Shown: positions 2,676 through 63,229, numbered from the stretch's first letter. The stretch is DNA of 64,000 nt from Candidatus Magasanikiibacteriota bacterium (GCA_003518365.1 DOYU01000022.1:24095-88094), one strand, 5' to 3'. Program-made: numbers and translations. Notes: generated by a model not told the origin, from the sequence alone.

Positions 2676-2758
2676 ACTTTTGCTGATTATTGAATAAATT
2701 ATATTTTTGCATTTTTTCTTGAATCCCATGCATACCTCTCAATTGAGGTTGGGCTTTT

Positions 2759-3358
2759 TTATCTAAGTTTTATTGTTGGTTCAACAACATCTTTCACTTC
2801 TTGACATCCAATTGGTTTGTTAGAGCCATCACTACCTCCAGAGCCACAGGAACTCATGAAGAGGAGCCAATTATCATTTAGCATTGTAGGATAAGCGTCT
2901 CCGGCGGCGTAACATAGATCAAAGTCTTTCTTGAATTGATCAAGTGAAGTATAACCAGCTTTGTTTGGAAGTAATGTTACGACGAAAGTATCAAATCCTT
3001 GGCTTTCTCCAGTGTACTTGAAGTTGTAGATAGTTTTAGATGAGCCACTAAATTTAGTAACTAACTTATCAAAGTAATCAGCTTCATGTTTGGTACCACA
3101 CTCTTTAGCCATTGATTCTAATTGATTGGCTGTGTAAACAAATGGTGCTGTCTTTTGGGATACAGAGGTGGAGACGCCACTTGTTGAATAGGTTATAGGT
3201 ATTTTTGGATCTTCGCTAACTGGATCAGATGGTTCGACGGCACCATTGAATGGCATAATATAAGGTTCATCAGTTGTTGCTTGATTAGTTGTACAGCCTG
3301 CTCCCATTGTTAATAATGGGATTGCAATTGCAAACAGGAACAAATTTTTTTTATTCAT
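2759..3358 (-). CDS. Lipoprotein, paralog of 2091..2675
   Basis: Its N-terminus, LTMGAGCTTNQATTDEPYIMPFNGAVEPSD, is nearly identical to the neighbour's TTGAGCTTNQATTADNDIMPYNGAVEPSD. Confidence 0.55.
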   Translation of the reverse strand: MNKKNLFLFAIAIPLLTMGAGCTTNQATTDEPYIMPFNGAVEPSDPVSEDPKIPITYSTSGVSTSVSQKTAPFVYTANQLESMAKECGTKHEADYFDKLVTKFSGSSKTIYNFKYTGESQGFDTFVVTLLPNKAGYTSLDQFKKDFDLCYAAGDAYPTMLNDNWLLFMSSCGSGGSDGSNKPIGCQEVKDVVEPTIKLR

Positions 3359-4336: not shown

Positions 4337-4535
4337 ATGTTTTTGGATTACTGAATAAATCTCATCGCTTATATGAAGCCTACTCTTAATCAAGGAATAA
4401 AGATATACCAACGGGAAACGACGCAGATATATACACATATTGTTTGCTTGCAACTAGAGCATATTACAATCCCTCTTGATGCTTGACGGAGTTCGTGCGA
4501 ATCCGATACAATACCCCTACTAATATTCTTGCACT

Positions 4536-5192
4536 ATGTCATCATTTGAACGCCTTTTTAAACTCGCAAAAAAGACCGGCGACCGTATGATCGTGTTTGA
4601 TAGCGCGATAGGGGACGGGTTTGCGGCTATCCCTATTGATGAATATGAGGCCATGATGACCGACCCACGTGATGTGATGTCTCTCTCTGGTGATGAACTC
4701 CTCGAACAAATCAATGACGATATTGCCATTTGGCGTGCACACCAGGAGGCAACAGAACGAGAAGAATTTGCAGATATTCTCGAAGAAAAACTTGCTGATG
4801 AACCACCCTTTGATCCGTTTGTGGAAGATTTTGCACACAAGCCTGAGTGGCACAGCACAGGAGATGTGTTACAAGATCGGTACAAAAAACCTTCGTTTGA
4901 CTGGCTGGAAGATGATGATGACGATGATGATCTTGGACTGTTTGATTATCATGAACCTGCTGACCATGAACGTCACCGTTCTCGATACGAAGATCCTGCT
5001 GTTGGTGTTGGAGAAGAGGAAGATTTTTTTGGAGATACTGAAGAAGAGGATGAAGAGATGACGGTTGAAACACTGCCGTTTGACCCACCGATGCCACAGT
5101 CTATTCCACCCGCAACAGAACGACCGCTCGGTGATTGGCAAGAAGAACCTCTCGATGAGGAACCGTTGTTTTTTGAAGAACCAATCGAATAA
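4536..5192 (+). CDS. Highly acidic, low-complexity hypothetical protein (Asp7 run, EEEDEE tracts)
   Basis: It is a 218-aa ORF with extreme D/E content and repeated W/F-x-D/E motifs. No catalytic motif was recognised. Confidence 0.5.
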   Translation: MSSFERLFKLAKKTGDRMIVFDSAIGDGFAAIPIDEYEAMMTDPRDVMSLSGDELLEQINDDIAIWRAHQEATEREEFADILEEKLADEPPFDPFVEDFAHKPEWHSTGDVLQDRYKKPSFDWLEDDDDDDDLGLFDYHEPADHERHRSRYEDPAVGVGEEEDFFGDTEEEDEEMTVETLPFDPPMPQSIPPATERPLGDWQEEPLDEEPLFFEEPIE

Positions 5193-20429: not shown

Positions 20430-22145
20430 ATGTCTGTGCCATATACACTGGGACATGATTTTTTCAAAGTACAGCAATGTTTGTTTGCTGTACTTTTTTT
20501 TGTGTTTGCTGTCACATTTGTGAGTCCTGTTCATGCAAGTGAATTTCCTATTTCACTGCAAGGAGTAGAGGAGTCGGCTGTCTCTCCAGACTTGTATGCG
20601 TGCGTACAAGATGCAAATCAAGCATATCTGTACAATGCAGAGATACGGTATTCAGATTGGCTGGAACAAGCCGTCGCATGTTACCGACAAACTGGCGATA
20701 TGTCACTCCTTCCATCTTTTTTCCAAGCATACGATTTTTCTACTGCTGAAAAAGATTTTGCCTTAGAAAATTGTAATGCTGATGTGCAGCGTGGACAGTA
20801 TGCACGACTCACTGCATGTGCGTGGAGTGGAAAAAGTATCAACGCATGTTATGCTGAAGAAAAAAATACAACTGTTCAGTTGTTATCGGCGTGTTATAAA
20901 GAAAACATTCCAGAAGACAGTATATGGAATCTGCCGATCATGCAGCAGGGGATAGAGGCCATGCTCGGCGGGGCAGATTACAACACGATGTCGCTCGAAG
21001 AAAAATATACCCTTGATACATGTCTGCAAGATGCATTATCCGGGGAAAAGGCTGACACGCTTGATCAAGAAAAGGAAGCTGCAATTGCATCTTGTTATAC
21101 CGAGGTCGGATTGACGGATGTTGCTGCCTTTTATACCAAAACATCCATTGTGGTTGATTGTGCCCTCGAAGTAGCAAGTCGTCGAGGCGTCTCTGATATC
21201 AAGACACTGATTGTCTCTCGATCTGCCGCTGATGAAGCATACATCGAACAATGTGTGGTAAAGAAAACTGCCCCGATTATTCTTGGCATAGCAGTAGTAA
21301 ACATTCCATTTGCAGCTGGCTTTGGAAATCTTTTGTTGTACCTCCAATTTTTCTTTACACAACCACTTCTTCTGCTACGTGGAAAACGAGAAAATTGGGG
21401 GAAAGTGCTGGACGCTATGACAGGATCGCCGATAGACCTCTCCGCTGTCAGACTTATTGATGAAGAAAAACAGACCGTCCTCAGAAGTATGGTGACAAAC
21501 AAGAAGGGAGAGTATTTCTTTTTGCCACCAACCGGGACATATCGCGTGGAAGCGATGAAGCAAGGATATGCATTCCCATCTACCTTATTGAAAGGATCTC
21601 CAGAGTATTATTTTGGAAAGAGTTTTGCAATCGATTCAAAAGGAGATGTCATAGACAAACATATTCCTCTTGATCCGGCTGTTGAAACGGTTTCTGTACG
21701 AGCATTTCTTCTGAAAAAATGGCGATACCGTATTGGGACCTTGTTTGCTGTGGTAGGTCCCGTATCTTCTCTGATATTTTTTATCTTCGTGCCAAAGTGG
21801 TGGGTTGCTGTCCTCATTGTATTGCATATTGTTTTGTTTTTTGTCTTCCGTCGTCTGTCATCGAGGCATACCGTAAAACAATTTGGTGTGGTAACAGATG
21901 AAAATGGGAAATCATTGAGTCAGGTAAAAGTCATGCTCTTTAACGGACCGTATAAAAAGTTGCTGCAATATTATGTGACGGATATGTTTGGACGATACTA
22001 CTTTCCTCCTATTGTCGGTGAGTTTATTGTTAAATTTGAAAAAGATGGTTTTGAAATGGCGAGTAAAGAAATTCAGATTAGTCCACTTGATACGACGAAA
22101 ACAGTACATCTGGATGTTCATTTGAAATCTACTATAACGTCATAA
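20430..22145 (+). CDS. Large membrane protein with a signal peptide, a Cys-rich N-terminal domain, TM helices and two CarboxypepD_reg-like (prealbumin-fold) domains
   Basis: GEYFFLPPTGTYRVEAMKQGYAF and GRYYFPPIVGEFIVKFEKDGF are typical CarboxypepD_reg motifs. The gene sits where infA and rpmJ usually follow map. Confidence 0.55.
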   Translation: MSVPYTLGHDFFKVQQCLFAVLFFVFAVTFVSPVHASEFPISLQGVEESAVSPDLYACVQDANQAYLYNAEIRYSDWLEQAVACYRQTGDMSLLPSFFQAYDFSTAEKDFALENCNADVQRGQYARLTACAWSGKSINACYAEEKNTTVQLLSACYKENIPEDSIWNLPIMQQGIEAMLGGADYNTMSLEEKYTLDTCLQDALSGEKADTLDQEKEAAIASCYTEVGLTDVAAFYTKTSIVVDCALEVASRRGVSDIKTLIVSRSAADEAYIEQCVVKKTAPIILGIAVVNIPFAAGFGNLLLYLQFFFTQPLLLLRGKRENWGKVLDAMTGSPIDLSAVRLIDEEKQTVLRSMVTNKKGEYFFLPPTGTYRVEAMKQGYAFPSTLLKGSPEYYFGKSFAIDSKGDVIDKHIPLDPAVETVSVRAFLLKKWRYRIGTLFAVVGPVSSLIFFIFVPKWWVAVLIVLHIVLFFVFRRLSSRHTVKQFGVVTDENGKSLSQVKVMLFNGPYKKLLQYYVTDMFGRYYFPPIVGEFIVKFEKDGFEMASKEIQISPLDTTKTVHLDVHLKSTITS

Positions 22146-27503: not shown

Positions 27504-28016
27504 TTATTCAATAATTTCCCCTTCATCATACTTGTATTCTGCGTCATTCCAACAGTTACAAGTCGTATTTCCGTTGTTATCTGGTGAAAGATATGATCCA
27601 TTTCCGTCATAGCCTTTTTGTACACACAGATTGACACATTGTTGATGGTTTTGCTTTTTAGATAGAGAAGCACTCAGAAAAGTAAACATAAGAGTACCTA
27701 CTAAAACTAATATTGCTATCGAAATTATAACATGTCCGCTGTTTACTGAAACGTATTCAGATTCTCGTTTTTTTCCAATAAAAAATCCAGTCACTATCAT
27801 GATCGTGAGTGATGTTAAAAACGCTATCGCTTTTGTCCCTGTTATTATCAACCCGGCCACTGCAGGCCATGTATTATCTCCAAATACAAAAGCCCATAAA
27901 AATGCGAATGCTAATATCCCTGCCAATATTGATGCAAAAATTGATATTATAATGCCAGGAATTCCAAATAAAAGTGAGTAAATGTATCTTTGTTTCATAA
28001 TGAGATAATTAATCAT
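27504..28016 (-). CDS. Hypothetical membrane protein with four TM helices and a Cys-rich C-terminal tail
   Basis: Hydrophobicity pattern plus a C-terminal CxC-rich region. Confidence 0.45.
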   Translation of the reverse strand: MINYLIMKQRYIYSLLFGIPGIIISIFASILAGILAFAFLWAFVFGDNTWPAVAGLIITGTKAIAFLTSLTIMIVTGFFIGKKRESEYVSVNSGHVIISIAILVLVGTLMFTFLSASLSKKQNHQQCVNLCVQKGYDGNGSYLSPDNNGNTTCNCWNDAEYKYDEGEIIE

Positions 28017-28173: not shown

Positions 28174-28602
28174 TTAAAAAAGATTGGCAGAGATAAATAA
28201 GTATAAAATGATCAATGAAAGAATGTATCCAATAATTGCGAAATGTTGAATGACTTTTTGTAGTAGAGTGAATTTTTTACTTGCTAGAATATAATCTTTA
28301 TCATTCTGCTTCGATGCACCAATATTTTGTCTACCTGTAGAACCAATGCTGTTGGCGGCTAAATAATTAGTTACAGAAGATAATATTAGAGTAGTTAACA
28401 ATAAGATTAAAGCAGTTTTGATGTAACAAACAGAATTTATTTTTCCATTTGAAGCTTTTATTTGTGTAATCAGCGGTATTATAAGAGTAATAGTTGCCCC
28501 CGAAAGTATTGACCAATGGAAAAAAAATTTTGTTCTTAATTCGGCTGCTTGTTTAGTTTGCTCTACGCCAAGATCAACTCTTTTTTCTTCTTCATTTTTC
28601 AT
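28174..28602 (-). CDS. Hypothetical membrane protein
   Basis: Three to four predicted TM helices. Confidence 0.45.
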   Translation of the reverse strand: MKNEEEKRVDLGVEQTKQAAELRTKFFFHWSILSGATITLIIPLITQIKASNGKINSVCYIKTALILLLTTLILSSVTNYLAANSIGSTGRQNIGASKQNDKDYILASKKFTLLQKVIQHFAIIGYILSLIILYLFISANLF

Positions 28603-28710: not shown

Positions 28711-29748
28711 CTACCCTTCTATACACGCATTATATCCACTCACCTCTACATTATATTCACTCACGAGCAACTCTGTCTCGCCAATAAGCGTGTTATATTC
28801 AGCAACAAGTGCATTGTATATATCTACTTTTTCTTTGTAAGCACTCCCTTGCTTTGGCTCGGACGCATCGAGTGCTTCTTTTTGCGCTGTGAGCTCGGCT
28901 TGCCGGTCTTTGATTGTTTGCTGGTTTGTTGCGATCAATGCTTGGGTATCTTTATTTGGAAGCGAACAATTTGGCAGCGGTTTTCCAAAAATTTGGACGG
29001 CAAGCCAGGTTTCGCGTCCGTCATACATGCCTTTGCCTACAGCAACACCAATCTCTGTATATTCTGGTTTTAATATATTTGCGCGATGGCCTGGACTATT
29101 CATCCATGCCGTGACCAGGTCTGTATCTCCAGAAAAGTCACCTAAGGCTAAATTTTCTCCAGTCAATCTGTAGATATATCCCGCACTTTCTACCCAGTAT
29201 GATGGCTGCGTGCCATCTGGCCCAACATGTGCAAAGTATTGCTTTGCAAACATATCTGCGAGCTTTGCTGCGGCAGCGTTGGAGAGCTTTGTGTTGAGCG
29301 TGAGAGATGAGAGGCCTTGGGCAGTTCTTTCCGCGTTTGTGACTGCTACGACGCCAGGAACGGTCAGTGCACCAGTCGCAGACAATGAAGGGCGTGTGAG
29401 CGGAGGCGGGGAATTGACTTCTTTTTTGGTGTCAGTGATTTTTGTTTGGGTAAATGTCGGGGTGGTTTCTTGTGTTGGGGTGTCTATCTTCTGTGGAGGC
29501 TCCTGATCTGCGGTTTTCTCAGTATCTGCTCTCAATGGTAGCTTTTGCCCTTTTGACGTGTCAGAAACACTTTGTGGGGCGTTGTAGCGAGCTAATTCTT
29601 CTATATCTACGTCTATCAGGGCTTCCTGTAAGGTAAATCTGAATAATAAGACAGCGCCAACCGTGAGGCCAGCAAAGAAGAGTATGGAGAAGAGTCGTCT
29701 CATAAGCTCTTGCGTAAAGGGGCATAGATTGCTACAATACCGAGGCAA
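28711..29748 (-). CDS. CAP/SCP (PR-1-like, YkwD-type) domain secreted protein with an N-terminal TM anchor and a C-terminal coiled coil. An alternative start is MRRLF at 29703.
   Basis: The CAP motifs GHRANIL and YTEIGVAVG. Confidence 0.65.
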   Translation of the reverse strand: MPRYCSNLCPFTQELMRRLFSILFFAGLTVGAVLLFRFTLQEALIDVDIEELARYNAPQSVSDTSKGQKLPLRADTEKTADQEPPQKIDTPTQETTPTFTQTKITDTKKEVNSPPPLTRPSLSATGALTVPGVVAVTNAERTAQGLSSLTLNTKLSNAAAAKLADMFAKQYFAHVGPDGTQPSYWVESAGYIYRLTGENLALGDFSGDTDLVTAWMNSPGHRANILKPEYTEIGVAVGKGMYDGRETWLAVQIFGKPLPNCSLPNKDTQALIATNQQTIKDRQAELTAQKEALDASEPKQGSAYKEKVDIYNALVAEYNTLIGETELLVSEYNVEVSGYNACIEG

Positions 29749-31585: not shown

Positions 31586-32281
31586 ATGAGGCAATCTGCT
31601 TATAGCATTATTATCCCAACCTATAACGAGGTAGAAAACATAACTCCGCTCATTGAGGAGATTATCGAACAGGTTGATAGTTCATCTGTGAGTTTGGATA
31701 TTGTTGTTATTGATGATAATTCTCCTGATGGCACAGGAAAAAAAGTGTTGGAATTGGTAGATACGTATCCTGTGAGGTTGATTTCTCGAGAATCAAAAAC
31801 CGGGTTAGGAAGCGCTGTGAGAGAAGGATTTGCTCAAACTGATTCAGAGTATCTTATTGTTATGGATGCAGATTTAAGTCATGATCCATCAATTTTGAAT
31901 GCTATGATCACGGCTTTATCGAGTTTTGATATTGTTATCGGCAGTCGTTTTTTGCCAGAAAGCACGGTTGAGTCTTGGACTCCTTGGCGTAAATTTTTAT
32001 CAAAATTTGGTGTTTCCTTGGCACGCTATACGGTGCAGGTACAGGATCCATTGAGTGGATATTTTGGTTTTCGTCGGCACGTTATTGATAATGTTCAGCT
32101 AAAGACAATGGGATATAAAATATTGTTTGAGATATTGGCGAAAGGAACCTATCAATCTGTATGCGAGATTCCGTTTACCTTTCGTGTGCGACATACGAGT
32201 GTTTCTAAATTGAATACGAAAGAATATCTTCGTTTTTTGTTTCAATGCATAACCTATGTGAGGTGGCGGAAAAAAAAGTAA
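31586..32281 (+). CDS. GT2 glycosyltransferase, polyprenol-phosphate mannose/glucose synthase (DPM1-like)
   Basis: IIIPTYNE, VIDDNSPDGT and DADLSHDP motifs. Confidence 0.8.
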   Translation: MRQSAYSIIIPTYNEVENITPLIEEIIEQVDSSSVSLDIVVIDDNSPDGTGKKVLELVDTYPVRLISRESKTGLGSAVREGFAQTDSEYLIVMDADLSHDPSILNAMITALSSFDIVIGSRFLPESTVESWTPWRKFLSKFGVSLARYTVQVQDPLSGYFGFRRHVIDNVQLKTMGYKILFEILAKGTYQSVCEIPFTFRVRHTSVSKLNTKEYLRFLFQCITYVRWRKKK

Positions 32282-32283
32282 GT

Positions 32284-33573
32284 ATGGTTTTACGGCTACG
32301 ACAAATAACATATATAAAAGTTTTTGCTTTTTCTTTTTTGTGTACGCTATTTGTTATATATCTCCATCTTGCATTGCCGTCGATGTTTAATCAATTTGCC
32401 AAAACAAACTTTTTCTTTTCTGATGTGTCTACAAGAATTAGCGAACCGTATGGAGAATATGTTTGGAATTTGCATACTACCCATCCGGTATTTGCAAGAA
32501 GGCAGCTTACGACACAAGTCGTACATTTGTTTCAGCATGTATTTGATATTGGGATAATGCCAGCGTTTATTCTGCTACAATCATTGCTTCTCTTTTTTTC
32601 TGGGGTGGCTCTCTTTTATTTTATACGGGCTGTAGAATTAGAAAAGTACTGGTTTGTATCATTGGCAGCATTTTATACAACATTTCCTATTTTATTTGCT
32701 TTTTTGCCTAGTATCTGGTCGTATGATGATCTTTGGCAAATATTTTTTTTGTTTCTTGTTCTTGCGAATGCGTGGAATCGGAGATATACGTTTACGTTAT
32801 TTTTTTTATTCCTTGCTCTCGTTTCTCGAGAATCAACGATCCTGGCGTTTCCTGGGATTTTTGGGATCATGGTCTATCGAGGATACGCCGGTGTGAAAAC
32901 AAAAATTTCATTTCGTTCTATATTCACCCATGGATTGATGTTATTACTTCCAATAGTAGTATATATGTTATATTATGTTGCATTAGGGCGCATACTCCAT
33001 ATGCAAGGAAGTGACGTCGCATATATGACAACTGAAAGATTTCGTCATGTTATGTATAATTTTCAGAATACTGCATATAGTGTAGAGTCTTTGGTTGCTC
33101 CGGTCCTTGTATATGGTTTAGCTGTATATGCTCTTTTTCGTTCCTTGCAAGGGGGATATATGAAAGAAACGTTTTTCCCTCTTGTGATTGGGTTTGTTGT
33201 GACTATGTTTGTAAATGTACTTGCTGTCTATACGGGTGGCCATGCCTATGAAATGCGCCTTTTTTTCTTACCCCTGGTATTTTTGTATCCACTATTGGGA
33301 TTTTTATATATGAAAGAATTGAGGACTATACGAGACATAGTGAAGAAACATACCATGCATAGGCGAGCTGCCCCTATACTTTTTACATATTTCATTTCTT
33401 TTTTCCTTTGTATTTTTGCTACAATTGTGTTTAGTTTTTTTGTATATAGTCCAGTTGGTGGTGGCCCTGTGAGTATGATATATCAATGTTTTCTTTTTCT
33501 TGTATTGTTTTTCATTGCTTTGAGTATGTGCTTGCACAGTGTAGACAAATCATTAAAAAGAATTTTAAGTTGA
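32284..33573 (+). CDS. Polytopic membrane protein, putatively a GT-C-fold glycosyltransferase partnered with the upstream DPM1-like enzyme
   Basis: At least ten TM helices and a position immediately downstream of a polyprenol-phosphate sugar synthase. The family assignment is inferred from context. Confidence 0.4.
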   Translation: MVLRLRQITYIKVFAFSFLCTLFVIYLHLALPSMFNQFAKTNFFFSDVSTRISEPYGEYVWNLHTTHPVFARRQLTTQVVHLFQHVFDIGIMPAFILLQSLLLFFSGVALFYFIRAVELEKYWFVSLAAFYTTFPILFAFLPSIWSYDDLWQIFFLFLVLANAWNRRYTFTLFFLFLALVSRESTILAFPGIFGIMVYRGYAGVKTKISFRSIFTHGLMLLLPIVVYMLYYVALGRILHMQGSDVAYMTTERFRHVMYNFQNTAYSVESLVAPVLVYGLAVYALFRSLQGGYMKETFFPLVIGFVVTMFVNVLAVYTGGHAYEMRLFFLPLVFLYPLLGFLYMKELRTIRDIVKKHTMHRRAAPILFTYFISFFLCIFATIVFSFFVYSPVGGGPVSMIYQCFLFLVLFFIALSMCLHSVDKSLKRILS

Positions 33574-38369: not shown

Positions 38370-40307
38370 TTACTGTTGCTGGTATGTGAACGATTTTTTC
38401 ATTGCTTTCCAGAATACTTCTTTGTTGACACAATGTGGATTGGTCCCATCGCAGTCTTTGTTTTCTAAAATGTTGCCATATTTGGCAAACGTATTTTTGT
38501 CTTCGTACATATACGGATCTTTTTGCAAGTTTGCTGTGACAGCGGCATGCGCTTTGTCTACGTCACCACCGGCTTTTGCCAATTCTTCTTCCATACCTAG
38601 ATTGTATGCACGGACAAGGCCGCGGAATTCTGCTGATTTTGCTTCTTTTTGGACCGTGTCGAGCGCTTCACCGAGTATTGCTGTCGTTGCTCCGGCAGCA
38701 TCTGATTCGACGAGTTCGAGCAATTCTCCAAAAGCGGCTTTTTTGGCCTCGTCTGTTATTTTTTCAATTATGTCATCTTTTATTTGATCTTGTATACGAC
38801 CTGTTTCTCTCTCAAAATCTTGTTGTTCTTGACTCAAGCCTTTGTCAATGGCGGCTTGTCTCTCGAGCATTCTTTCATATATCAAGAGTGATTCATCATA
38901 TTTCTTTTCTTTTTCTGTTGGGTTTGCGTTCCAGAATTTGAGGTAGTCTTTGGCATTGCCAAGTTTTTCGTTCCAACGTAATTTTACGAGTTCAGAAGCT
39001 TCTAGATTTTCTATATCATTTTTTGGATCATTTTTGTAGGCAAGCATATCACTGATTGCCTTATACTCTTTTTCGCTCAGTGTTTCACCTTTTTCGCGCA
39101 AACTATCATTAAGCGCCGTCAGAGCATTTTTTGTTTTTTCATCTATTTCCCCCGTTGCGTAGTCGAGTGCTGTTTGTTTGTTCAGTGGGTCTGTGAGCGA
39201 TTCGTATTCTTTTTTATTTTCATCATTGATTACTGCCATGTAGTCTGCCTTGGTTTTTTCTAACTCGTCTAATTGTTTTTGCAACGCAGCGTCTGGATTT
39301 TCATTCAATTCTTTTTTCAAAAATTCTATTTGTTCGTCTATTTCAACTACTCTGCCAGGATGAATTGATGGACTTACTTGCTCAATACATGCGTCTCTAT
39401 CAGCTCCTGTTAATGCTACACAGCCAGAAGGATTTTTGAATTTGACGGAGGTATTCAAAATACATTCTTCTTTGGTGTACGAGTAGGGGCCTCCTTCTAT
39501 GTTGTCACACGTACCAAGGTCGCCGGTATTTTCCGCTATACGGAGATAACATTTGTCTTTTGGTGGATTCGATCCTGAATCAGAAAAATCTTCACCTTGT
39601 ATATTTTTACACGTATCGGGATTTCCTCCCTGAACCGCAGCATTTTGCAAACAATGATCAGGATTGTCAAAGAAGCCACATGCCCATTCGTTGATATTGC
39701 TTACGCACCCTGTGAGAAAGAGGGGTGCTATGAGGAAGGATGCAACAAGCGCAGATTTTTTAGCTACGTTTTTGCTGATTACTTTTTTGACAATGAGTAT
39801 CAACGTCCACAGAGCTACTACCCAAAACAAAAATTTGGTGGTAGATAAGAGCGGCACGCCGATATAATAGATGAGTCCTCTTCCCATATCAGTATATTTG
39901 TTTTCAATATAGACGAGCTGTCTCGCCAAAAAATACCAAGGTAACGTCATGAGGAACGCTATTACTGGGAATATAAGAGTGTAATTTTTTAGTGCAGTTT
40001 TTTTCAATATACCATACACTATATATCCACCAAGCATAGAGATGAATCCTAGTGCCAGTCCGGCAAAAATACTGTAGGTGGCAAAAAGTTTTGTTATACG
40101 AGCATCGGTAATATCTGCGTATGTGATCTTTGCTAAATCATACGAAAAAAAATAAAAAAGACCGCCAAAAACGATCCAGAATACGAGAGGCATAAGTGCC
40201 GTGTGCAAAAAGTTTGTTCTTGTCTTTTTTTCTTTGGGTGAGTTTTGTGTGTCTGCAAGTATTTCCTCTTGTTCTTCGGGCTGGTTGGCTATATGTTCTT
40301 CTTCCAT
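38370..40307 (-). CDS. Large 645-aa membrane protein with about six N-terminal TM helices, a Cys-rich segment and a long extracellular coiled-coil domain
   Basis: Hydrophobicity plus a heptad-rich acidic C-terminal half. There is no catalytic motif. Confidence 0.5.
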   Translation of the reverse strand: MEEEHIANQPEEQEEILADTQNSPKEKKTRTNFLHTALMPLVFWIVFGGLFYFFSYDLAKITYADITDARITKLFATYSIFAGLALGFISMLGGYIVYGILKKTALKNYTLIFPVIAFLMTLPWYFLARQLVYIENKYTDMGRGLIYYIGVPLLSTTKFLFWVVALWTLILIVKKVISKNVAKKSALVASFLIAPLFLTGCVSNINEWACGFFDNPDHCLQNAAVQGGNPDTCKNIQGEDFSDSGSNPPKDKCYLRIAENTGDLGTCDNIEGGPYSYTKEECILNTSVKFKNPSGCVALTGADRDACIEQVSPSIHPGRVVEIDEQIEFLKKELNENPDAALQKQLDELEKTKADYMAVINDENKKEYESLTDPLNKQTALDYATGEIDEKTKNALTALNDSLREKGETLSEKEYKAISDMLAYKNDPKNDIENLEASELVKLRWNEKLGNAKDYLKFWNANPTEKEKKYDESLLIYERMLERQAAIDKGLSQEQQDFERETGRIQDQIKDDIIEKITDEAKKAAFGELLELVESDAAGATTAILGEALDTVQKEAKSAEFRGLVRAYNLGMEEELAKAGGDVDKAHAAVTANLQKDPYMYEDKNTFAKYGNILENKDCDGTNPHCVNKEVFWKAMKKSFTYQQQ

Positions 40308-45718: not shown

Positions 45719-46399
45719 CTAACATGACGGATCTTTTTTGTGTTCAGACTGTTCAGGTCCTTTTTCCTCTAGATCAGAAAAATTTCGCAATCCTTCCCAT
45801 TTTTTGCGGAAATCTTCCGCACCGAGGTACTCAACAAAGGTATGGTATTGGGAATGTGTGTGGGGTAGGCGGGTGGCGTATTTGATGGGGCACCAATATC
45901 GTTCTGTCCGCCCAGCAATTTCAGTCGCGTAGCGCATGAGATTGTTGAAGTAGCTGCAGTACAGACAATTGAATTTTTCAAACCAGTTTAAATAGGGCAG
46001 CCGTTGGCGGTCGTAGACAAAATAGTCTCGTGCTTTTACGCGTGGGATATCGTACAGACGAAATGAAAACTGATGATACATCTCAAGGCAAATATGAAAA
46101 ATGATCGCAGGCATGATCATTCCATAAATGAATGGAACGCTGAGAAGATGGGGGAGGCTAATGGGAAAAAAAGTTTTGAGAGAACTGATTTTCCATTGTC
46201 GCATTTGTTCTCTTTTTTTCTTGAGTTCTGTAAAAATGTTTGTCTTTGTATTCACTGCTTGCATTGCACGATCAAACGCTGCAAACATATCGTCCCCAAG
46301 TTCTGAAAGTTTTTTCACTTCAAGCTCTTTCATTTTCCCCAGACGATCTTGAATGTTTTTCAGGCGTTTTTGGAGGTCTTGTTTTGTTTTGTTTATCAT
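45719..46399 (-). CDS. Hypothetical protein with an N-terminal coiled coil, one TM helix and a C-terminal Cys/His-rich region
   Basis: ORF only. Confidence 0.4.
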   Translation of the reverse strand: MINKTKQDLQKRLKNIQDRLGKMKELEVKKLSELGDDMFAAFDRAMQAVNTKTNIFTELKKKREQMRQWKISSLKTFFPISLPHLLSVPFIYGMIMPAIIFHICLEMYHQFSFRLYDIPRVKARDYFVYDRQRLPYLNWFEKFNCLYCSYFNNLMRYATEIAGRTERYWCPIKYATRLPHTHSQYHTFVEYLGAEDFRKKWEGLRNFSDLEEKGPEQSEHKKDPSC

Positions 46400-56349: not shown

Positions 56350-58497
56350 ATGCATCTCGATACCTCAGTTATTCATCTCAATAAGGTAGGGGAGGCGCTT
56401 GAGAAGCGTCTGCTTCGGCTTGGGATAAAAACGGCGCACGATCTGTTATTTCATTTTCCGTTTCGCTATGAAGATTTTAGCCAGGTGTCTGGGATTACAC
56501 AACTGCAGAACGGACAGGAAACAACGATTGAAGGAACAGTCGAGCTGATTGCAAATAAACGTAGTCCACGAAAGTGGACGATGATCACAGAAGCGGTAGT
56601 AAGCGATGGGACAGCGCAGATGCGTGTTGTGTGGTTTGGTCAGCCATTTATTGCAAAAAGTTTACATGTAGGGGACAGGGTGTTTCTGTCTGGAAAAGTG
56701 AAGGATGATATGTTTGGGTTACAGATGGTGTCGCCGAGCTACGAAAAAATCAGAAATCAGGCGTCAGTAACCAGTAACCTAGACACTTTGAATACTGCAA
56801 GAATCGTGCCAATGTATTCACTTACAACAGGGCTCACACAAAAACAATTGCGGATGTTGATAAAGCAAGTATTACCCGTTGCCAAAGAACTTTCAGAATG
56901 GCTGCCTGAAGATATCCGCGACAGAGCAGACGTCATGCCACTGCATGAGGCGCTTGCGCATATCCATTTTCCAGAAGACCTGGATAGTTTGAAACATGCC
57001 GAGCGTCGATTGAAATTTGATGAATTATTTTTATTGCAGCTCAGAGCTGAGATGATTCGCCAAGAAGTGAAGCAAGAAACTGCATCAGAAATTCCATTTG
57101 CTGAAGAAACGATCAAGGCGTTTGTGGCTGCATTGCCGTTTGCTCTCACGAAAGCACAAAAGATTGCGGCGTGGGAGATCTTGAAAGATATAGAAAAAAA
57201 AGAACCCATGAATCGATTGCTTGAAGGAGATGTAGGATCAGGGAAAACCGTTGTGGCTGCGATGGCGACGCTCGATGCTGTTCATGCTGGGTTTCAAGTA
57301 GCGATCATGGCGCCGACGGAGATTTTGGCGAAGCAACATTTTCAATCATTTCAGACGTTGCTTCCCAATGCAAAGATATTGCTTATAACATCGTCAGAAA
57401 TTAGAAATTTGAAATTAGAAATTGGTGAAGAATCAAAGAAAAAGCGGAGAGATCAAGCCATTGCATGTATGAAAAGTGGGGAAGCGCAGATTGTGATTGG
57501 GACGCATGCATTGCTGACAGACGATGTCTTATTTAAAAATCTCGGTTTGGTCATCGTTGACGAACAACATCGCTTTGGTGTGGCGCAGCGGAAAACAATT
57601 CGAGAAAAGTCTGGTAATCCAAATACCATGCCGCATTTTCTTTCTATGACTGCGACACCGATTCCACGTTCGTTTGCATTGACATTGTACGGCGATTTGG
57701 ATTTGTCTATTATCAATGAAATGCCAGTGGGGAGGAAACCTGTGAAGACTACGGTTGTCGATCCACACGCACGGTCTGCTGCGTATGATGTTATTCGGGA
57801 TGAGGTGAAGGCGGGGAGGCAGGTGTTTGTAATTTGTCCGTTGATTGAGGAAAAAAAAGATGAAGGGACAGGTTCCTCCACTTCGGCGGACAGGCGTGAC
57901 CTGTCAGTACAGACGTCTGGTTCAGAAAAAAAATCTGTATTAGCAGAGTATGAAAAACTTTCAACAAAAATATTTCCTAATCTTCGCGTTGCATATATTC
58001 ATGGAAAAATGAAATCTGTAGAGAAAGATGCTGTGATGAACAAATTTGCTACTGGCGAGATCGATATTCTTGTTTCAACCTCAGTCGTTGAGGTCGGTGT
58101 AAATATTCCAAACGCGAGTGTGATGATGATAGAAGGAGCTGAAAATTTTGGGCTTGCACAGCTTCACCAGTTTCGTGGACGTGTGGGGCGAAGTGAATAT
58201 CAGTCATATTGTTTTTTGTTTACTGATAGTGATAGTCAGCGAGTGGCAGAGCGACTGAAATTTTTTTCAAGCACGACGAACGGATTCAAAGTCGCTGAGT
58301 ATGATCTCGAGATGCGTGGGCCGGGAGAAGTGTATGGGAAGATGCAGAGTGGTATGGGAGAGTTGAAGTTTGCGACGATGCAAGATGGCGAGCTTATCAA
58401 GCTTGCACGAGAGGTTGCACGTGGTATTGATTTTGAGAAATATAGTACGCTAAAAGAAAGGGTGGAGGAGTGGGAGCGGGGGATTCATCTGGAATAA
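56350..58497 (+). CDS. recG: ATP-dependent DNA helicase RecG
   Basis: A wedge domain and helicase motifs (GDVGSGKT, DEQH). Confidence 0.9.
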   Translation: MHLDTSVIHLNKVGEALEKRLLRLGIKTAHDLLFHFPFRYEDFSQVSGITQLQNGQETTIEGTVELIANKRSPRKWTMITEAVVSDGTAQMRVVWFGQPFIAKSLHVGDRVFLSGKVKDDMFGLQMVSPSYEKIRNQASVTSNLDTLNTARIVPMYSLTTGLTQKQLRMLIKQVLPVAKELSEWLPEDIRDRADVMPLHEALAHIHFPEDLDSLKHAERRLKFDELFLLQLRAEMIRQEVKQETASEIPFAEETIKAFVAALPFALTKAQKIAAWEILKDIEKKEPMNRLLEGDVGSGKTVVAAMATLDAVHAGFQVAIMAPTEILAKQHFQSFQTLLPNAKILLITSSEIRNLKLEIGEESKKKRRDQAIACMKSGEAQIVIGTHALLTDDVLFKNLGLVIVDEQHRFGVAQRKTIREKSGNPNTMPHFLSMTATPIPRSFALTLYGDLDLSIINEMPVGRKPVKTTVVDPHARSAAYDVIRDEVKAGRQVFVICPLIEEKKDEGTGSSTSADRRDLSVQTSGSEKKSVLAEYEKLSTKIFPNLRVAYIHGKMKSVEKDAVMNKFATGEIDILVSTSVVEVGVNIPNASVMMIEGAENFGLAQLHQFRGRVGRSEYQSYCFLFTDSDSQRVAERLKFFSSTTNGFKVAEYDLEMRGPGEVYGKMQSGMGELKFATMQDGELIKLAREVARGIDFEKYSTLKERVEEWERGIHLE

Positions 58498-59229: not shown

Positions 59230-60588
59230 TTACGTCTTTGCAATCAATTCTTCTATATTTTTTACTTGCACTGTTTTTACACCATCAATGATTGGTACGG
59301 CTTTACTCGCTGCGGTGATGACGCGTGTCATGCCAAGCTGGGCTGCTTCTTTTATTCTTTTTTCGAGAAAACGTACGGATCGGACTTCACCGCCAAGACC
59401 GACTTCTCCAAACACGACCAAATCTTTGCCACCGGATTTTTCTTTGAAACTACTTGCGATGGCAAGGCAGACTGCAAGATCTACCGATGGTTCTGTTGCT
59501 TTTACACCGCCGACAACATTGAGATGAATGTCGTACTGTCCGAGATCTAGGCCTGCCCGTTTTTGTAGCACGGCGACGAGGACGTGGAGGCGATTGATAT
59601 CAAAGCCACTTGCTTTTCGTACTGGATATCCAAAACTTGTTTTGTTTACCAGTGCCTGGATTTCTACGAGGAGTGGGCGCGTGCCTTCCATGAGGCAGGT
59701 GATAATACTGCCAGGCATGTCGTCACCTCGTTCTGCGAGAAAGGCGGCGGATGGATTTGCTACACCAAAAAGACCATCGCTTTTCATTTCAAAAATACCA
59801 ACTTCGTCTGTGGATCCAAATCTATTTTTGACAGCGCGAAGAATTCTGTATACATGATATCTATCTCCTTCGAGGTATAGGACGGTGTCGACAAGATGTT
59901 CCAGTGTTTTGGGGCCGGCCACCGTGCCGTCTTTTGTGACATGTCCGATAAGGACGACTGGCACGCCGCTCGACTTTGCAGCGTCGAGGAGTGTTACGGT
60001 GCAGGCACGAATTTGGGACACACTTCCTGATTCTCCTGTCGCGTCCGCATTCCACATGGTTTGCATGGAGTCGACGATTACTAACTGTGGTTTGAGTTTT
60101 TTAATTGTACTAGAAATAACATCAATGTTTGTCTCATTCGAGAGGGAAAGAGACGCATGGCTATGCGTCTTTACGTCGTTCATGTTTAGTCTATCGGCTC
60201 TTAGTTTGATTTGTTCGACGGATTCTTCTCCGGAGAAGTAGAGTGTGTTTGGGATGCTGGCAGCGAGCTGGAGAGACAGTGTGGATTTCCCAATGCCAGG
60301 TTCACCGCCAAGCAGTGTGAGGCTTCCCGGGACAATGCCACCGCCGAGGACACGGTCAAGTTCGCTGATATGTGTTTGTGCTCTGACGATGTTTTTCCCT
60401 GCGATATCTTTCAATGATGTTGTCTTTGCAACAGGGAGATCTTGAAGATTTTTTGATTTGTTATTTTCTTGTGTTATTGCCTTCTCAAGCGTACCCCATT
60501 TGCCACATTCAAGACACCTGCCGTTCCATTTTGTAAACTGGGCGTCGCAGTTTGTACAAGAAAAAATAGTTGTGTTTTTTTCAGCCAT
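59230..60588 (-). CDS. radA: DNA repair protein RadA/Sms
   Basis: An N-terminal C4 zinc ribbon, a RecA-like ATPase (GEPGIGKST) and a Lon-like C-terminal domain. Confidence 0.9.
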   Translation of the reverse strand: MAEKNTTIFSCTNCDAQFTKWNGRCLECGKWGTLEKAITQENNKSKNLQDLPVAKTTSLKDIAGKNIVRAQTHISELDRVLGGGIVPGSLTLLGGEPGIGKSTLSLQLAASIPNTLYFSGEESVEQIKLRADRLNMNDVKTHSHASLSLSNETNIDVISSTIKKLKPQLVIVDSMQTMWNADATGESGSVSQIRACTVTLLDAAKSSGVPVVLIGHVTKDGTVAGPKTLEHLVDTVLYLEGDRYHVYRILRAVKNRFGSTDEVGIFEMKSDGLFGVANPSAAFLAERGDDMPGSIITCLMEGTRPLLVEIQALVNKTSFGYPVRKASGFDINRLHVLVAVLQKRAGLDLGQYDIHLNVVGGVKATEPSVDLAVCLAIASSFKEKSGGKDLVVFGEVGLGGEVRSVRFLEKRIKEAAQLGMTRVITAASKAVPIIDGVKTVQVKNIEELIAKT

Positions 60589-60692: not shown

Positions 60693-62609
60693 TCACTCCT
60701 CTTCAACAGATTGACTTGATACATTTGGGCATGTGGATTCTTGCCACATCACGGCATTCACTCTGTTAAAGCAATCTTTATTTGTTTCGGACTCTATATA
60801 TTCTGTTTTCCCAGTATCATTTGATATTTCACAACATCCTTTTGCATTATCTGCTTTTTTTAGTGAGTAATCTTGTTGAGCAAGTTGTGTTGCAATTTTT
60901 TCTGACCATTGCTTATTTTTGCATCCATGAACAGTAGAGTCTAATCCTATTTTACTATAATCAAAATTCCGTGCATCTGCTCTGTTATTATCCACTTGGC
61001 AATGATTCAAAATACTTCCATCCGTTCGCGAGATGCTCGTCATAGGAACTACTTTTGAAATAATTTTATTTATAGCATCATATTGTTCTTGGGTATATGT
61101 GCATTTCGCACTACAGGTGGCATCTCTTACACATGCCGTTCCTGTGCTACATTCATCTGCAATGCTCAGATCTATGCCAATAGAAAATGGATTTATGGTG
61201 CCTGCATGATACGCTCTCCTGCGTATGTCTACGGCTTCAATAATGGTCCCATCTCGTTTTACCACAAAATGCGTTGAGAGTTGTCTCGATTTTAGTGTAT
61301 TTACGGTTGCATCGATTCCATTGACGAGTTTATCTCGACTACCTTCATGAAGAATAATATATCGGACACTTTTGAGGGAACGATTGCCACAGGAAAATGC
61401 ATCAAGTGCATCGAACTGTGCTATGCCAAGTCCTAAACTTTGAGATGCAGGTTTTCTCCCTACACATGGTGTAGAGACTGTTGATGCCGTTTCTTCTTCT
61501 GCACTGTGCTCTGAGAGAGGGATGCTTTGGACTATCATGACACGCAGATTTCTAAAATTTACCAATTCTGGGTTGATAAGGTAGAGTAACGCATAGGATG
61601 TTGTGGCAATAAAGAGACCAATGATTGCCTGTGTGATATGTTTTTTGGCAGTAGTAATTTTGTCACTCTGTCCTGATGATGCAATCCATAAGAGACCTGC
61701 ATACATAATCATGACTACGGAGGCAACCCCAATTGCTATGATACCGTACTTGTATATTGAAGCTATATATTCTCCTAAATAGGGGAAATACACATACGTT
61801 GCTCCTCTTTCGTCTGTTGTTCGTTTCAGTTTGCTAGGATTTGTGAAGGATACCCCCGGGATAGTAATTTTGAGACTGGGTGCTTGAATGAGTTTATTCA
61901 ATGCGGCTGCATTGAGCTGGATCGCGGCTGAAGTGTCTGTAAGAATATCGAGGCCGCAGCTTTCCGTGACTGGTCCGGGAAATTTTGAGTTGACTTGGTT
62001 ATCATATTGACAATAGTTTAGATTACCTGATCCACAAGTTCCATCGTTACATTCCCATTTGGTAGGATCTTGCCCCGGTGTCCCATATGCTTGTGAACAA
62101 TCTTCCTTACCAGTCGATCCGACTGCTGCCGCACTACACACACAATAATTTCTTTGGTCGATAGCGCTTTTTTCACAAACATCCGTGCTGCAATCGTTAT
62201 CATCAGTACATATTTGTCCAATAGAGAGTTTGGTCTGCTGCTCGGCTGCCTCATCATTGTATTGGCAGTAATTTAAGTTGCCTGTTGTAATTTTTCCATC
62301 ATTACATTCCCATTTGGTAGGATCTTGTCCCGGTGTCCCATATGCTTGAGCACATTCTTGGTCACCTGTCGACCCGATTGCTGCCGCACTACACACACAA
62401 TATTTTTTTCCATCGAGATAATTTTCCTCACAAACATCAGTACTGCAATTATCATTATCAGTACATATCTGTCCAATAGGAAGTTTTGCCGGCTCTGCTT
62501 GTCCGTATGCTATGTGAGGCAAGGAAAAGAGTCCCAAAAGGAATGGAAAAACAAATAAACATGTTGATACATATATTCTGCGTTTCATAGACCAAGCACT
62601 ATTTCCCAT
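60693..62609 (-). CDS. Secreted, membrane-anchored protein with a signal peptide, two tandem ~85-aa Cys-rich repeats, a hydrophobic anchor region and a C-terminal N-acetylmuramoyl-L-alanine amidase (Amidase_2/PGRP-like) domain
   Basis: The repeats LPIGQICTDNDNCSTDVCE... and LSIGQICTDDNDCSTDVCE..., and the amidase motifs ILHEGS...HFVVKRDG...AYHAG. Confidence 0.65.
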   Translation of the reverse strand: MGNSAWSMKRRIYVSTCLFVFPFLLGLFSLPHIAYGQAEPAKLPIGQICTDNDNCSTDVCEENYLDGKKYCVCSAAAIGSTGDQECAQAYGTPGQDPTKWECNDGKITTGNLNYCQYNDEAAEQQTKLSIGQICTDDNDCSTDVCEKSAIDQRNYCVCSAAAVGSTGKEDCSQAYGTPGQDPTKWECNDGTCGSGNLNYCQYDNQVNSKFPGPVTESCGLDILTDTSAAIQLNAAALNKLIQAPSLKITIPGVSFTNPSKLKRTTDERGATYVYFPYLGEYIASIYKYGIIAIGVASVVMIMYAGLLWIASSGQSDKITTAKKHITQAIIGLFIATTSYALLYLINPELVNFRNLRVMIVQSIPLSEHSAEEETASTVSTPCVGRKPASQSLGLGIAQFDALDAFSCGNRSLKSVRYIILHEGSRDKLVNGIDATVNTLKSRQLSTHFVVKRDGTIIEAVDIRRRAYHAGTINPFSIGIDLSIADECSTGTACVRDATCSAKCTYTQEQYDAINKIISKVVPMTSISRTDGSILNHCQVDNNRADARNFDYSKIGLDSTVHGCKNKQWSEKIATQLAQQDYSLKKADNAKGCCEISNDTGKTEYIESETNKDCFNRVNAVMWQESTCPNVSSQSVEEE

Positions 62610-63229
62610 TCAGCAACAGAATTCGGTGTTGCGATTTGGGTATTATCAACAAAAAATGTTGGGACACTCTGCACATGAAGAATTGTTGCCAATGATTGAA
62701 TTGTATCAATATATGCAAGACCATCATTTGAATCAAGACATGCTGATAGTTTTTCTTGATCTAACTCGATTTCATTTGAGATGGTGACTAATGTTGTTGG
62801 TGTGAGATTTGTATTATTTACAAATGCATACTCTTTAAATACTTCAAATTTTCCTTGTTTGTGTGCACAAAATGCATATTCATGGGCGACTTCACTCGGA
62901 TATGGATAGGGGATAACGGGAAGACCTTTCCATATAATTTTGACTTTGCCTGGATGTTGTTGTTGAACCTGTTTCAAAAAGGTATCTTGTATTTTACATC
63001 CTGCACAGGCAAGATCTTCAAACACGACGATTGTTTTTGGGGAAGAAGGAGAGCCTATGATTGGATCATCAGGTAATATTGGTATCAAATCAAGTGATTC
63101 ATTCTGTTGAGATTGAATTTTTCGTGACTGAGATAAGGAATTGTATTGCCATATGCGTATCATGAAAATTCCGGCAACAAGAAAAATTGCCGGTATCATG
63201 ATAAAAAATATGTGTCTCGGTTTTATCAT
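62585..63229 (-). CDS. Thioredoxin-fold thiol:disulfide oxidoreductase (DsbA-like) with an N-terminal TM anchor
   Basis: A CAGC (CxxC) active-site motif in a thioredoxin-like context, and adjacency to a Cys-rich secreted protein. Confidence 0.55.
   Translation of the reverse strand: MIKPRHIFFIMIPAIFLVAGIFMIRIWQYNSLSQSRKIQSQQNESLDLIPILPDDPIIGSPSSPKTIVVFEDLACAGCKIQDTFLKQVQQQHPGKVKIIWKGLPVIPYPYPSEVAHEYAFCAHKQGKFEVFKEYAFVNNTNLTPTTLVTISNEIELDQEKLSACLDSNDGLAYIDTIQSLATILHVQSVPTFFVDNTQIATPNSVAEWEIVLGL

Follow-up and report, generated by a model that had tools for sequence, protein, structure and literature searches.

A predicted cell-wall amidase on a VirB2-like pilin core belongs to a modular hydrolase family with a DsbA-like neighbour in ABY1 Patescibacteria

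Introduction

Among described peptidoglycan amidases, AmiD and AmpDh2 are tethered to the envelope and work outside the cytoplasm. Here we describe a gene for a larger protein that carries an amidase domain of this kind, located in a 64,000-nucleotide stretch of DNA from a Candidatus Magasanikiibacteriota bacterium (GCA_003518365.1, DOYU01000022.1:24095-88094), the whole of which we call the window and from whose first letter all positions are counted. The gene lies at 60693..62609 on the minus strand and, as called, encodes a 638-aa hydrolase with a pilin-like core as its anchor. It is part of a conserved cluster whose combination of an Amidase_2 domain, a VirB2-like pilin core and a DsbA partner is previously undescribed.

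The best matches of the amidase domain, in both sequence and structure, are the members of the AmpD group (AmpD, AmpDh2-AmpDh3 and AmiD; PDB 1J3G/2Y28, 4BJ4 and 2BH7), with which the window protein shares the Amidase_2 fold and a His-His-Asp zinc triad. It differs from this group in that its anchor is not a lipid but a VirB2-like hairpin of two helices set midway along the chain, in having a four-cysteine insert as well as Asp and Arg in place of AmpD E116 and K162, in the addition of two N-terminal Cys-rich domains and a Cys-containing tail, and in coming from a monoderm in which a dedicated DsbA gene lies next to it.

The hairpin has its counterpart in the VirB2-like pilins of Patescibacteria (PF18895; PMC12102498; Wang et al. 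2023, PMC10633639), which occur in the same phylum and, like the window protein, have a signal peptide, two helices and a short basic loop; they match PF18895, as does the window protein at a score just below the cut-off. A 2025 survey that used PF18895 (Quinonero-Coronel et al., PMC12102498) reported VirB2-like pilins in 1,948 assemblies and arrays of 2-11 pilin genes, and the hydrolase genes described here likewise form tandem arrays, of one to three paralogues. However, ordinary VirB2-like pilins are ~70-230 aa long and encoded near virB4, whereas the window protein has no gene of a type IV secretion system (T4SS) within reach. The hydrolase family also adds to the pilin plan an 'IPGxxF' strand element before the first transmembrane (TM) helix and an 'INPELVxFRNL' motif after the second, bears large enzyme or binding domains on both sides of the hairpin, and sits in a cluster that runs from a propeller gene through a DsbA gene to radA.

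Wall hydrolases of the VirB1 type from Gram-positive conjugation systems (PrgK of pCF10, TraG of pIP501, TcpG and CD419; in PMC12102498) are membrane-anchored, multi-domain proteins that mix SLT, CHAP/NlpC-P60 and M23 modules and open the wall for an envelope-spanning machine, and sister proteins of the window family carry those modules. In contrast to the pilin-like anchor, the Amidase_2 domain and the lack of adjacent T4SS genes seen here, VirB1-type proteins are held in the membrane by one N-terminal TM segment, and their genes lie within T4SS operons. Modular lysins and polymorphic effectors, such as phage endolysins and the wall effectors of type VI and type VII secretion systems, combine a constant module with swappable catalytic and variable binding domains, as is also the case here. 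The constant module of the window family is, however, an integral membrane hairpin, and the locus is without a holin, phage context, immunity gene or adjacent secretion system and has a position that is fixed class-wide. A DsbA/DsbC-like gene beside exported, disulfide-containing proteins that are thought to be serviced by it is also found in the F plasmid (TrbB/TraF) and in Vibrio cholerae (TcpG). The DsbA-like partner described here differs in that it is anchored in the membrane by its N-terminus, comes from a monoderm and is conserved together with very Cys-rich hydrolases.

The organism belongs to Candidatus Magasanikbacteria, a group of class ABY1 in the Patescibacteria or candidate phyla radiation (CPR), and is an ultra-small groundwater bacterium. 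The CPR accounts for a large share of bacterial diversity, and how its members remodel their own wall or breach that of a host is largely unknown. A cultivated relative cannot grow as an epibiont without its VirB2-like pilins, and in the sole genetically tractable species they are essential while their function is unexplained (PMC10633639, PMC12857230). As the locus analysed here makes clear, a large, Cys-rich family of wall hydrolases with its own cluster and DsbA partner is also built on the pilin-type hairpin as its constant core. The locus supplies concrete CPR lysin candidates for biochemistry and gives a testable link, or a testable lack of link, between wall hydrolysis and the Patescibacterial T4SS.

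Results

A class-wide family of wall hydrolases on a pilin-like core

The window protein belongs to a modular family, spread across the class, in which interchangeable wall hydrolases are carried on a pilin-like core. The conserved core module of ~130 aa (61530..61907, minus strand; aa 231-361, E 2.3e-59 with the core hidden Markov model, HMM) has the consensus 'KPxxKIxIPGLxFS ... IP[YF]LGEYIAAxYKY-TM1-SGG..AKKRI-TM2-SYxLLYxINPELVxFRNL'. In the window protein it consists of 'KPxxKIxIPGxxF' strands, 'P[YF]LGEYI', TM1, an 'SGG..AKK' loop, TM2 and 'INPELVNFRNL'. A profile of this core was searched against 1.84 billion representative proteins (clusters at 50% identity) and matched 41,407 of them at E<=1e-3, a set that equals the general pilin family, 8,628 at E<=1e-10 and 505 at E<=1e-30; the size of the family itself is at least 505 clusters at 50% identity. 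Almost all of the best 150 matches are multi-domain proteins of 270-1147 aa, while a separate protein search with the core alignment retrieved short PF18895 pilins only.

Homologues keep the N-terminal part and the hairpin and vary in their C-terminal enzyme, which may be VanY/M15, SLT, M23 or Amidase_2; their N-terminal modules vary as well (the Cys domain described below, SGNH, EEP or none). A Pfam census of 87 family members found T4SS_pilin in 66 (E<=1e-3, best 2.9e-71), Amidase_2 in 15, SLT and VanY in 10 each, Peptidase_M15_4 and GDSL/SGNH in 7 each, Peptidase_C39_2 in 6, GH18, NlpC/P60 and CHAP in 2 each, and M23 and EEP in a single member each. Variable catalytic domains on a constant carrier are a trait of polymorphic effectors, and in this family the payload is swapped at the syntenic locus. 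At one metagenome locus (L003) an 86-aa open reading frame (ORF) at 3252-3512 is the N-terminal piece, with the GSSS motif, of an SGNH domain, the rest of which opens the next ORF (3564-4952, P0015), so that the pair resembles a frameshifted or split SGNH-pilin-VanY gene. Full-text literature searches returned no description of pilin-hydrolase fusions.

Gene start, membrane hairpin and topology

The window protein is identical to P0001/KKT25474.1 and to three other entries from metagenome-assembled genomes (MAGs) of Candidatus Magasanikbacteria. Databases mostly annotate a shorter, 631-aa form that begins at M8 (62588). The upstream start, and with it the 638-aa form, is favoured because the N-terminal peptide 'MG[NG]S[AT]W.M' is common to the window protein and its orthologues P0002 and P0007. 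With this upstream ATG the first 25 nt of the ORF (62585-62609) lie within the 3' end of the DsbA-like gene, and the orthologous locus of P0002 (L001) has the same 25-nt overlap. A signal peptide is predicted at aa 1-36 (62502..62609, minus strand), where KRR is followed by a hydrophobic core (hydropathy peak aa 11-36) and, by the -3/-1 rule, by a putative cleavage site between AYG and QA.

Hydropathy places TM helix 1 at aa 288-312 (61674..61748) and TM helix 2 at aa 327-346 (61572..61631), both on the minus strand, and in 631-aa numbering the corresponding model helices span 271-303 (pLDDT, the predicted local distance difference test, 87-90) and 308-338. The full-length AlphaFold model has a mean pLDDT of 64 and is confident for these two long helices and most of the amidase; strands were modelled at 'IPGVSF' and 'YVYFPY' before TM1 and at 'RVMIV' after TM2. 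The signal peptide, two hydrophobic helices and short basic loop seen by hydropathy and in the model follow the plan of a VirB2-like pilin, and the size of the protein exceeds that of a bare-hairpin pilin by ~200 aa of Cys domains before the hairpin and ~290 aa of amidase and tail after it. The Pfam T4SS_pilin profile (PF18895; cut-off 26.6 bits) gives the window protein 23.2 bits over aa 290-338 and its homologue P0015 30.7 bits; NCBIfam gives a weak match to a pilin-like conjugal transfer protein.

By the positive-inside rule, the basic loop that joins the two helices, SSGQSDKITTAKKHITQ, would lie in the cytoplasm. Since the N-terminus (KRR) is basic as well, the Cys domains and the amidase would both lie outside the membrane, which suggests an N-out/C-out topology as in VirB2/TrbC pilins. 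In the 612-aa homologue P0042 four tandem hairpins are followed by an SLT lytic transglycosylase, an arrangement that would work only if every hairpin brings the chain back to the outside. The earlier note had described the protein as secreted with a hydrophobic membrane segment. The segment is made up of two TM helices, and because these are of the T4SS_pilin type the protein is predicted to be anchored rather than freely secreted, with both halves that flank the VirB2-like hairpin outside but tethered.

Proteins with 3-11 tandem VirB2-like hairpins per chain also occur (P0042, P0152, P0043, P0063, P0137, P0140 and P0173). For example, P0152 (1147 aa) has eleven hairpins with Cys-containing linkers between them. 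These poly-pilin proteins may bear on the working of the published pilin gene arrays.

A zinc amidase domain of the AmpD type

The Amidase_2 domain occupies aa 393-562 (60924..61433, minus strand) and is defined by Pfam, fold matches and a zinc triad. It matches PF01510 over aa 413-544 with E 3.3e-14 and 53.8 bits against a cut-off of 26, and its AlphaFold 2 (AF2) model has a pLDDT mostly of 80-96. A Foldseek search of the PDB placed AmpD first, followed by phage amidase endolysins, peptidoglycan recognition proteins (PGRPs), T7 lysozyme and staphylococcal AmiA/AmiE, and all of the top 44 matches belong to one or another of these groups. None of the zinc ligands H421, H536 and D545 (638-aa numbering) varies in an alignment of 20 diverse homologues, whose family profile matches AmpD with E 3e-15 and also AmpDh2, AmiD and T7 lysozyme. 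H536 and D545 align with AmpD H154 and D164, and H421 aligns with the first zinc His ('LHY') of AmpDh2. The C-terminal Amidase_2 domain proposed in the earlier note is thereby confirmed, as is the intact AmpD-type metal triad that was to be checked for it. The amidase region also matches phage amidase and endolysin PHROGs, and we regard it as credible that the C-terminal domain is a zinc amidase that would cut the MurNAc-L-Ala bond.

The positions of AmpD E116 and K162 are taken by D480 and R543. D480 is a nearly invariant Asp in the family and the position of R543 holds His, Arg or Lys, and judging from the alignment both are conservative replacements. These two residues, and the fact that the fold also matches non-catalytic PGRPs, are what would speak for a PGRP-type sensor or binder of peptidoglycan instead of an enzyme. 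Such a role is nevertheless very improbable, given that non-catalytic PGRPs typically lose the third zinc ligand whereas all three are invariant in the 20 homologues, and that sister proteins bear other bona fide hydrolase domains at the same place.

The four-cysteine insert lies at aa 487-503, between the 'IGID' strand and the next helix. The C-terminal tail (aa 563-638; 60696..60923, minus strand), which was modelled with low confidence, has a small 'GCC...C...C' motif that is also seen in P0003, P0005 and P0008 and, in P0012, at the N-terminus.

A duplicated eight-cysteine domain

Two copies of a Cys-rich domain follow the signal peptide and were delimited with a domain HMM built from homologues of the window protein, copy 1 at aa 42-118 (62256..62486; E 6.5e-31) and copy 2 at aa 127-205 (61995..62231; E 1.9e-29), both on the minus strand. 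In the DNA they appear as a direct repeat (62005..62494) with copies at 62005-62239 and 62260-62494, a period of 255 and 80% identity over 235 nt. Identity falls to 74.5% in DNA when the whole period of 255 nt is compared, and at the protein level it is 66% for that period and 71% for the 79-aa domain. The two repeats of ~85 aa, with a period of ~255 bp and ~80% identity, that had been noticed before are thus real, and the units given for them fall inside these copies. Copy 1 has the eight cysteines that had been ascribed to each (49, 55, 60, 71, 73, 86, 102 and 115), but copy 2 has an extra one, C192, in addition to the equivalent eight, and C218 lies in the linker that follows. Tandem Repeats Finder (min_score 30) did not call the pair because the copies are too diverged. 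Their differences are mostly synonymous (dS 0.92, dN 0.21, dN/dS 0.23, where dS and dN are synonymous and nonsynonymous divergence) and their longest identical run is 26 nt; both copies are under purifying selection.

Copy 1 gave a confident AF2 model (pLDDT 91.6; predicted template modelling score, pTM, 0.81). The domain has no Pfam family above cut-off and no fold match in the PDB, so that the hope of recognising known binding modules by structure prediction was disappointed, and as modelled it is a novel disulfide domain without known relative. Pfam LEAP-2, EB and Nodulin_late were considered and rejected, as their matches are below the cut-offs and reflect Cys spacing only. Tyr and Trp residues are conserved in the Cys domains, which most likely serve as wall- or ligand-binding modules.

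By the domain HMM, the Cys domain is present in 60 of the 178 proteins examined and in ~50 of 137 new family representatives, nearly always straight after the signal peptide and usually singly, with two copies in seven proteins. The window copies are 59-61% identical to the domain of the single-copy orthologue P0002 and closer to each other (71%), and the duplication in the window protein would therefore postdate the split from P0002. Pairwise identities point to independent duplications in P0129 and P0114 and to an older one common to P0014, P0073 and P0084, and thus the copy number appears clearly labile over evolutionary time. A hotspot for slipped-strand change, as had been suggested for the repeat, is weakly supported at best, with dS at ~0.9, no identity longer than 26 nt and two copies stable across assemblies. 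The same two-copy protein, without a single difference, turns up on 24 or more contigs, under four GenBank MAG accessions and in third party annotation (TPA) re-assemblies.

A 214-aa fragment, P0029 (SRR3989339_493731), is the window protein with its two Cys domains fused into one hybrid; the crossover lies inside the shared AYGTPGQDPTKWECNDG and the rest of the fragment matches the window protein at every residue. Run SRR3989339, from which it comes, also gave a fragment with two copies, P0181. P0029 may be either a real deletion allele or a chimera, the latter because its source, the SRC catalogue, is what we take to be a protein-level assembly. The occurrence of both forms in one run would be the sign that the tandem repeat itself is an assembly artefact, but this is extremely improbable: the copies differ at 20-25% of bases with synonymous changes dominating, the identical protein recurs in several assemblies and projects, other family members have two copies as well, and P0029 is itself the likelier artefact.

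The DsbA-like neighbour and a conserved gene cluster

A gene at 62585..63229 on the minus strand encodes a 214-aa membrane-anchored DsbA-like thiol:disulfide oxidoreductase. Its product matches Pfam Thioredoxin_4 (E 4.7e-20, 72.9 bits, cut-off 23.2) and DSBA (1.4e-7, 31.9 bits, cut-off 25.6) and contains C75-A-G-C78 together with C121 and C164. From its N-terminal hydrophobic anchor, IFFIMIPAIFLVAGIFMI, with basic residues before it, the protein is predicted to be extracytoplasmic. A DsbB/VKOR partner was not found among the 34 window ORFs scanned against Pfam, a scan outside which small ORFs and the remaining genome fall.

Seven metagenome loci share the order clpB, one or two unknown membrane or coiled-coil proteins, propeller-like, DsbA-like, one or two core hydrolases, radA, and recG with lytR, while the payloads at the equivalent position differ among them. 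For a wider scan, one genome per species was used and cluster order was scored with HMMs built from the first loci, which yielded 47 loci from Patescibacteria, Magasanikbacteria and Uhrbacteria among them. In 43 of these a propeller gene is followed by DsbA, one to three core genes and radA, and three of the four exceptions are truncated by contig ends. The DsbA-like gene lies directly upstream of the hydrolase gene or genes in 43 of 47 species loci and in all seven metagenome loci, and CxxC is retained in 41 of the 43 DsbA-like neighbours with a highly variable inner dipeptide. The family is also rich in cysteine. Core-module proteins have a median of 15.5 Cys, which make up 2.7% of residues as against 0.74% in other ORFs of the same loci, a 3.7-fold enrichment that includes members without the N-terminal repeat, and the count is even in 48 of 68. 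Because both the enrichment and the adjacency are family-wide, the link to DsbA is a property of the whole cluster and not just of the repeats in the window protein. The membrane-anchored CxxC protein of thioredoxin fold that the earlier note had placed next to the amidase is present, and the connection drawn there between the two genes is strengthened.

No immunity-like ORF was seen beside the hydrolases in the metagenome or species loci, where each hydrolase gene borders on another or on radA; the one small ORF in these loci, 86 aa long and located in L003, is the N-terminal part of a split SGNH domain. A scan for promoters and terminators was at chance level and uninformative on co-transcription. 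The possibility of a prophage lysin, or one from an integrative and conjugative element (ICE), was ruled out by the conserved housekeeping synteny. A defence system was likewise rejected, as PADLOC had no match for the hydrolase, DsbA-like and propeller proteins and only a weak coiled-coil match to LmuB for a 287-aa neighbour.

Discussion

Function proposed for the window protein

We propose, with a confidence of about an even chance, that the protein is a membrane-tethered, disulfide-stabilised wall amidase whose substrate, in cis, is the wall of the producing cell itself close to the membrane. Sec would export the protein, the signal peptide would be cleaved, and the VirB2-like hairpin would insert with its short basic loop in the cytoplasm. 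The two eight-Cys domains and the Amidase_2 domain would then sit on the outer face of the membrane with linkers of only ~35-45 residues. A presumably co-transcribed, membrane-anchored DsbA-like protein may form up to ~14 disulfides from the 29 extracytoplasmic Cys, a role suggested by the conserved adjacency and the Cys content. The Cys domains would bind wall or ligand, and the H421/H536/D545 zinc site would, by homology, fold and conserved ligands, cut the MurNAc-L-Ala bond. The presumed target is the cell's own wall near the membrane, to be cut for growth or division or to make an opening for envelope-spanning machines. Mur ligase, S11 DD-carboxypeptidase and LytR genes inside the window indicate that the organism makes peptidoglycan. 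Action in cis is favoured because the tethers are short and the anchor integral to the membrane, and because each genome has just one locus, which keeps the same housekeeping position throughout the class and has no immunity gene. The locus has a fixed chromosomal place among clpB, radA, recG and lytR across Magasanikbacteria and Uhrbacteria; this position, the absence of an immunity ORF, the organism's own wall genes and purifying selection are signs of a vertically inherited envelope function.

Several observations weigh against this proposal. The payload at one locus differs by species (amidase, VanY, SLT-like, M23, SGNH or EEP) and is an amidase in only ~9 of 47 species loci. Such activities are not interchangeable for a defined housekeeping step and are more typical of effectors, or of hydrolases for which any hole will do, and payload swapping fits a host-directed lysin, or a T4SS-associated hole-maker or pilus-displayed enzyme, at least as well. 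The core is homologous to the VirB2-like pilins that are essential in a cultivated relative, and the window protein itself falls just under the Pfam T4SS_pilin cut-off. The AmpD E116 and K162 equivalents are replaced, and topology, signal-peptide cleavage and disulfides are all inferred.

Host-directed and T4SS-associated alternatives

If the protein were instead displayed at, or released into, the zone of contact with a host, it could cut the host wall for muropeptide feeding or to open a channel, the Cys domains would bind the host surface, and payload swaps would be adaptations to different host walls. Swappable payloads and variable N-terminal modules on a constant core, like those of polymorphic effectors and modular lysins, speak for such a lysin, as do several independent duplications of the Cys domain, and the ~90-aa extended linker of the adjacent propeller protein could extend beyond the wall. 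Cultivated members of the radiation are, moreover, obligate epibionts (PMC12102498). However, tethers of 35-45 residues and an integral two-helix hairpin demand a processing or release step and none is evident, no immunity gene adjoins, and the locus occurs once per genome at a fixed housekeeping position in the whole class, a pattern unusual for accessory effector loci. A host-directed lysin is thus possible but rather unlikely in our view.

It could also be that the hairpin still assembles with the Patescibacterial T4SS, either to make holes, in the manner of VirB1, from within the platform or to serve as a minor pilin by which wall enzymes are displayed along the pilus. The core does belong to the T4SS_pilin family, the weak NCBIfam match is to a conjugal-transfer pilin, and poly-hairpin proteins with a C-terminal SLT domain exist. 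In the 2025 survey (PMC12102498), VirB1 was generally not recognisable in Patescibacteria with VirB2 homologues, and virB4 loci of class ABY1 were commonly within 20 genes of recG and radA (section 14 therein). Its table for GCA_001000125.1, one of the genomes with the identical protein, lists VirB4 (KKT25787.1), TrsD, VirB6, VirB3 and a single VirB2, KKT25948.1, with KKT25474.1 unlisted; the same table has a VirB2 match, KKT24894.1, that also bears an NlpC/P60 domain (PMC12102498). Because KKT25474.1 is missing from the VirB2 list, pilin-core hydrolases may be under-counted in T4SS surveys. Against an association with the T4SS, none of its genes occurs in the 56 kb that the window covers towards recG, in 10 kb on the other side or in six other metagenome loci, VirB4 of this genome is a separate entry that is not adjacent to KKT25474.1, and KKT25474.1 itself stands outside the published VirB2 list. 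In addition, globular domains of ~200 and ~290 residues on either side of the hairpin are hard to accommodate in the major subunit of a VirB2-type filament, for which large flanking domains are ill-suited according to pilus structures. Taken together this makes assembly with the T4SS unlikely. More speculative, and distinctly unlikely, is a scenario in which ABY1 hairpins of VirB2 type became carriers of swappable wall enzymes and an eight-Cys domain with a dedicated DsbA, and co-assembled with T4SS pilins to give enzyme-decorated pili or a pilin-built substitute for VirB1 that breaches the host wall. If true, this would be a new delivery route for lytic enzymes and would explain the missing VirB1 in most VirB2-bearing Patescibacteria.

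Neighbouring genes and other features of the window

The last positions of the window hold the 3' part of a gene for a membrane-anchored propeller-like protein (63241..>64000, minus strand; weak PD40/TolB/WD40 matches), which runs past the window end and is conserved directly upstream of the DsbA-like gene in the same species loci. The full-length protein, taken from metagenome locus L009, has 411 aa, an N-terminal TM segment, a ~90-residue S/T/G/P-rich linker and WSP(D/N)G-like motifs, and propeller proteins of this kind have a conserved Cys pair. The product of this upstream gene is probably a beta-propeller. It had been put forward as a periplasmic TolB-like propeller encoded downstream; in the direction of transcription the gene lies upstream of the DsbA gene, and the TolB identity was rejected. 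Scores were far under the cut-offs for PD40 (11.5 bits; cut-off 20.9) and for TIGR02800 (18.7 bits; cut-off 343), and a profile search of the PDB returned no TolB but weak WD40 and 6PGL propeller matches (E>=0.02). A Tol-Pal context is absent from the locus, which has clpB and an unknown coiled-coil membrane protein on one side of the gene and the DsbA-like gene with the hydrolase on the other, and a monoderm envelope has been described for Patescibacteria (PMC12857230). Further upstream than the propeller gene, the cluster also retains one or two proteins that combine a TM hairpin and coiled coils with a long acidic, disordered stretch (L009 7237-8100; L005 1790-3611). The one in L009 is 287 aa long and lies just past the end of the window. 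These proteins have no Pfam family and gave weak matches of coiled-coil type, including PADLOC LmuB at E 4e-4.

The window as a whole is core chromosome, with genes for EF-Tu, adenylate kinase, methionine aminopeptidase and two class II aminoacyl-tRNA synthetases as well as ScpA/B, ParA/B, RelA/SpoT, TopA, DprA, Pth, EngA, RecG and RadA, in an inventory that leaves out short plus-strand ORFs at ~9-18 kb. The assignment to a bacterium with a small genome, made earlier from the sequence, was correct, since GCA_001000125.1 (GW2011_GWA2_43_9; class ABY1) is a CPR genome of 1.09 Mb with 1121 proteins (PMC12102498 supplement).

Between recG (56350..58497, plus strand) and radA (59230..60588, minus strand) lies a GC-rich island at 58655-59120 (63-69% GC, compared with 42% for the genome), a candidate conserved non-coding RNA (ncRNA) of ~450 nt on the plus strand. 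It is strongly structured (z -5.6 on the plus strand and -4.3 on the minus strand), and at its 3' end a conserved long hairpin and a terminator-like stem are followed by a T run on the plus strand. Homologues are full-length in L001 and L020, with 3' parts in L003 and L023, and a three-sequence comparison found compensatory changes in 28 of 112 predicted pairs. In many related loci such an island lies just downstream of radA, and before recG where the locus extends that far. Searches for a matching Rfam family and for a transfer-messenger RNA (tmRNA) were negative, and a 117-aa ORF called within the element is probably spurious.

Seven other ORFs of the window are without a Pfam match at E<=1e-3: 38370..40307 (minus), 32245..33573 (plus), 27504..28016 (minus), 28174..28602 (minus), 45719..46399 (minus), 2759..3358 (minus) and 4536..5192 (plus). 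Two of these are large, at 645 and 442 aa. Adjoining PsbP_2-like proteins are encoded at 2091..2729 and 3407..4453 (minus). Likely exported products include a protein of the CAP/cysteine-rich secretory family (28711..29748, minus strand; E 5e-16) and a 571-aa protein with CarboxypepD_reg-like repeats (20430..22145, plus strand).

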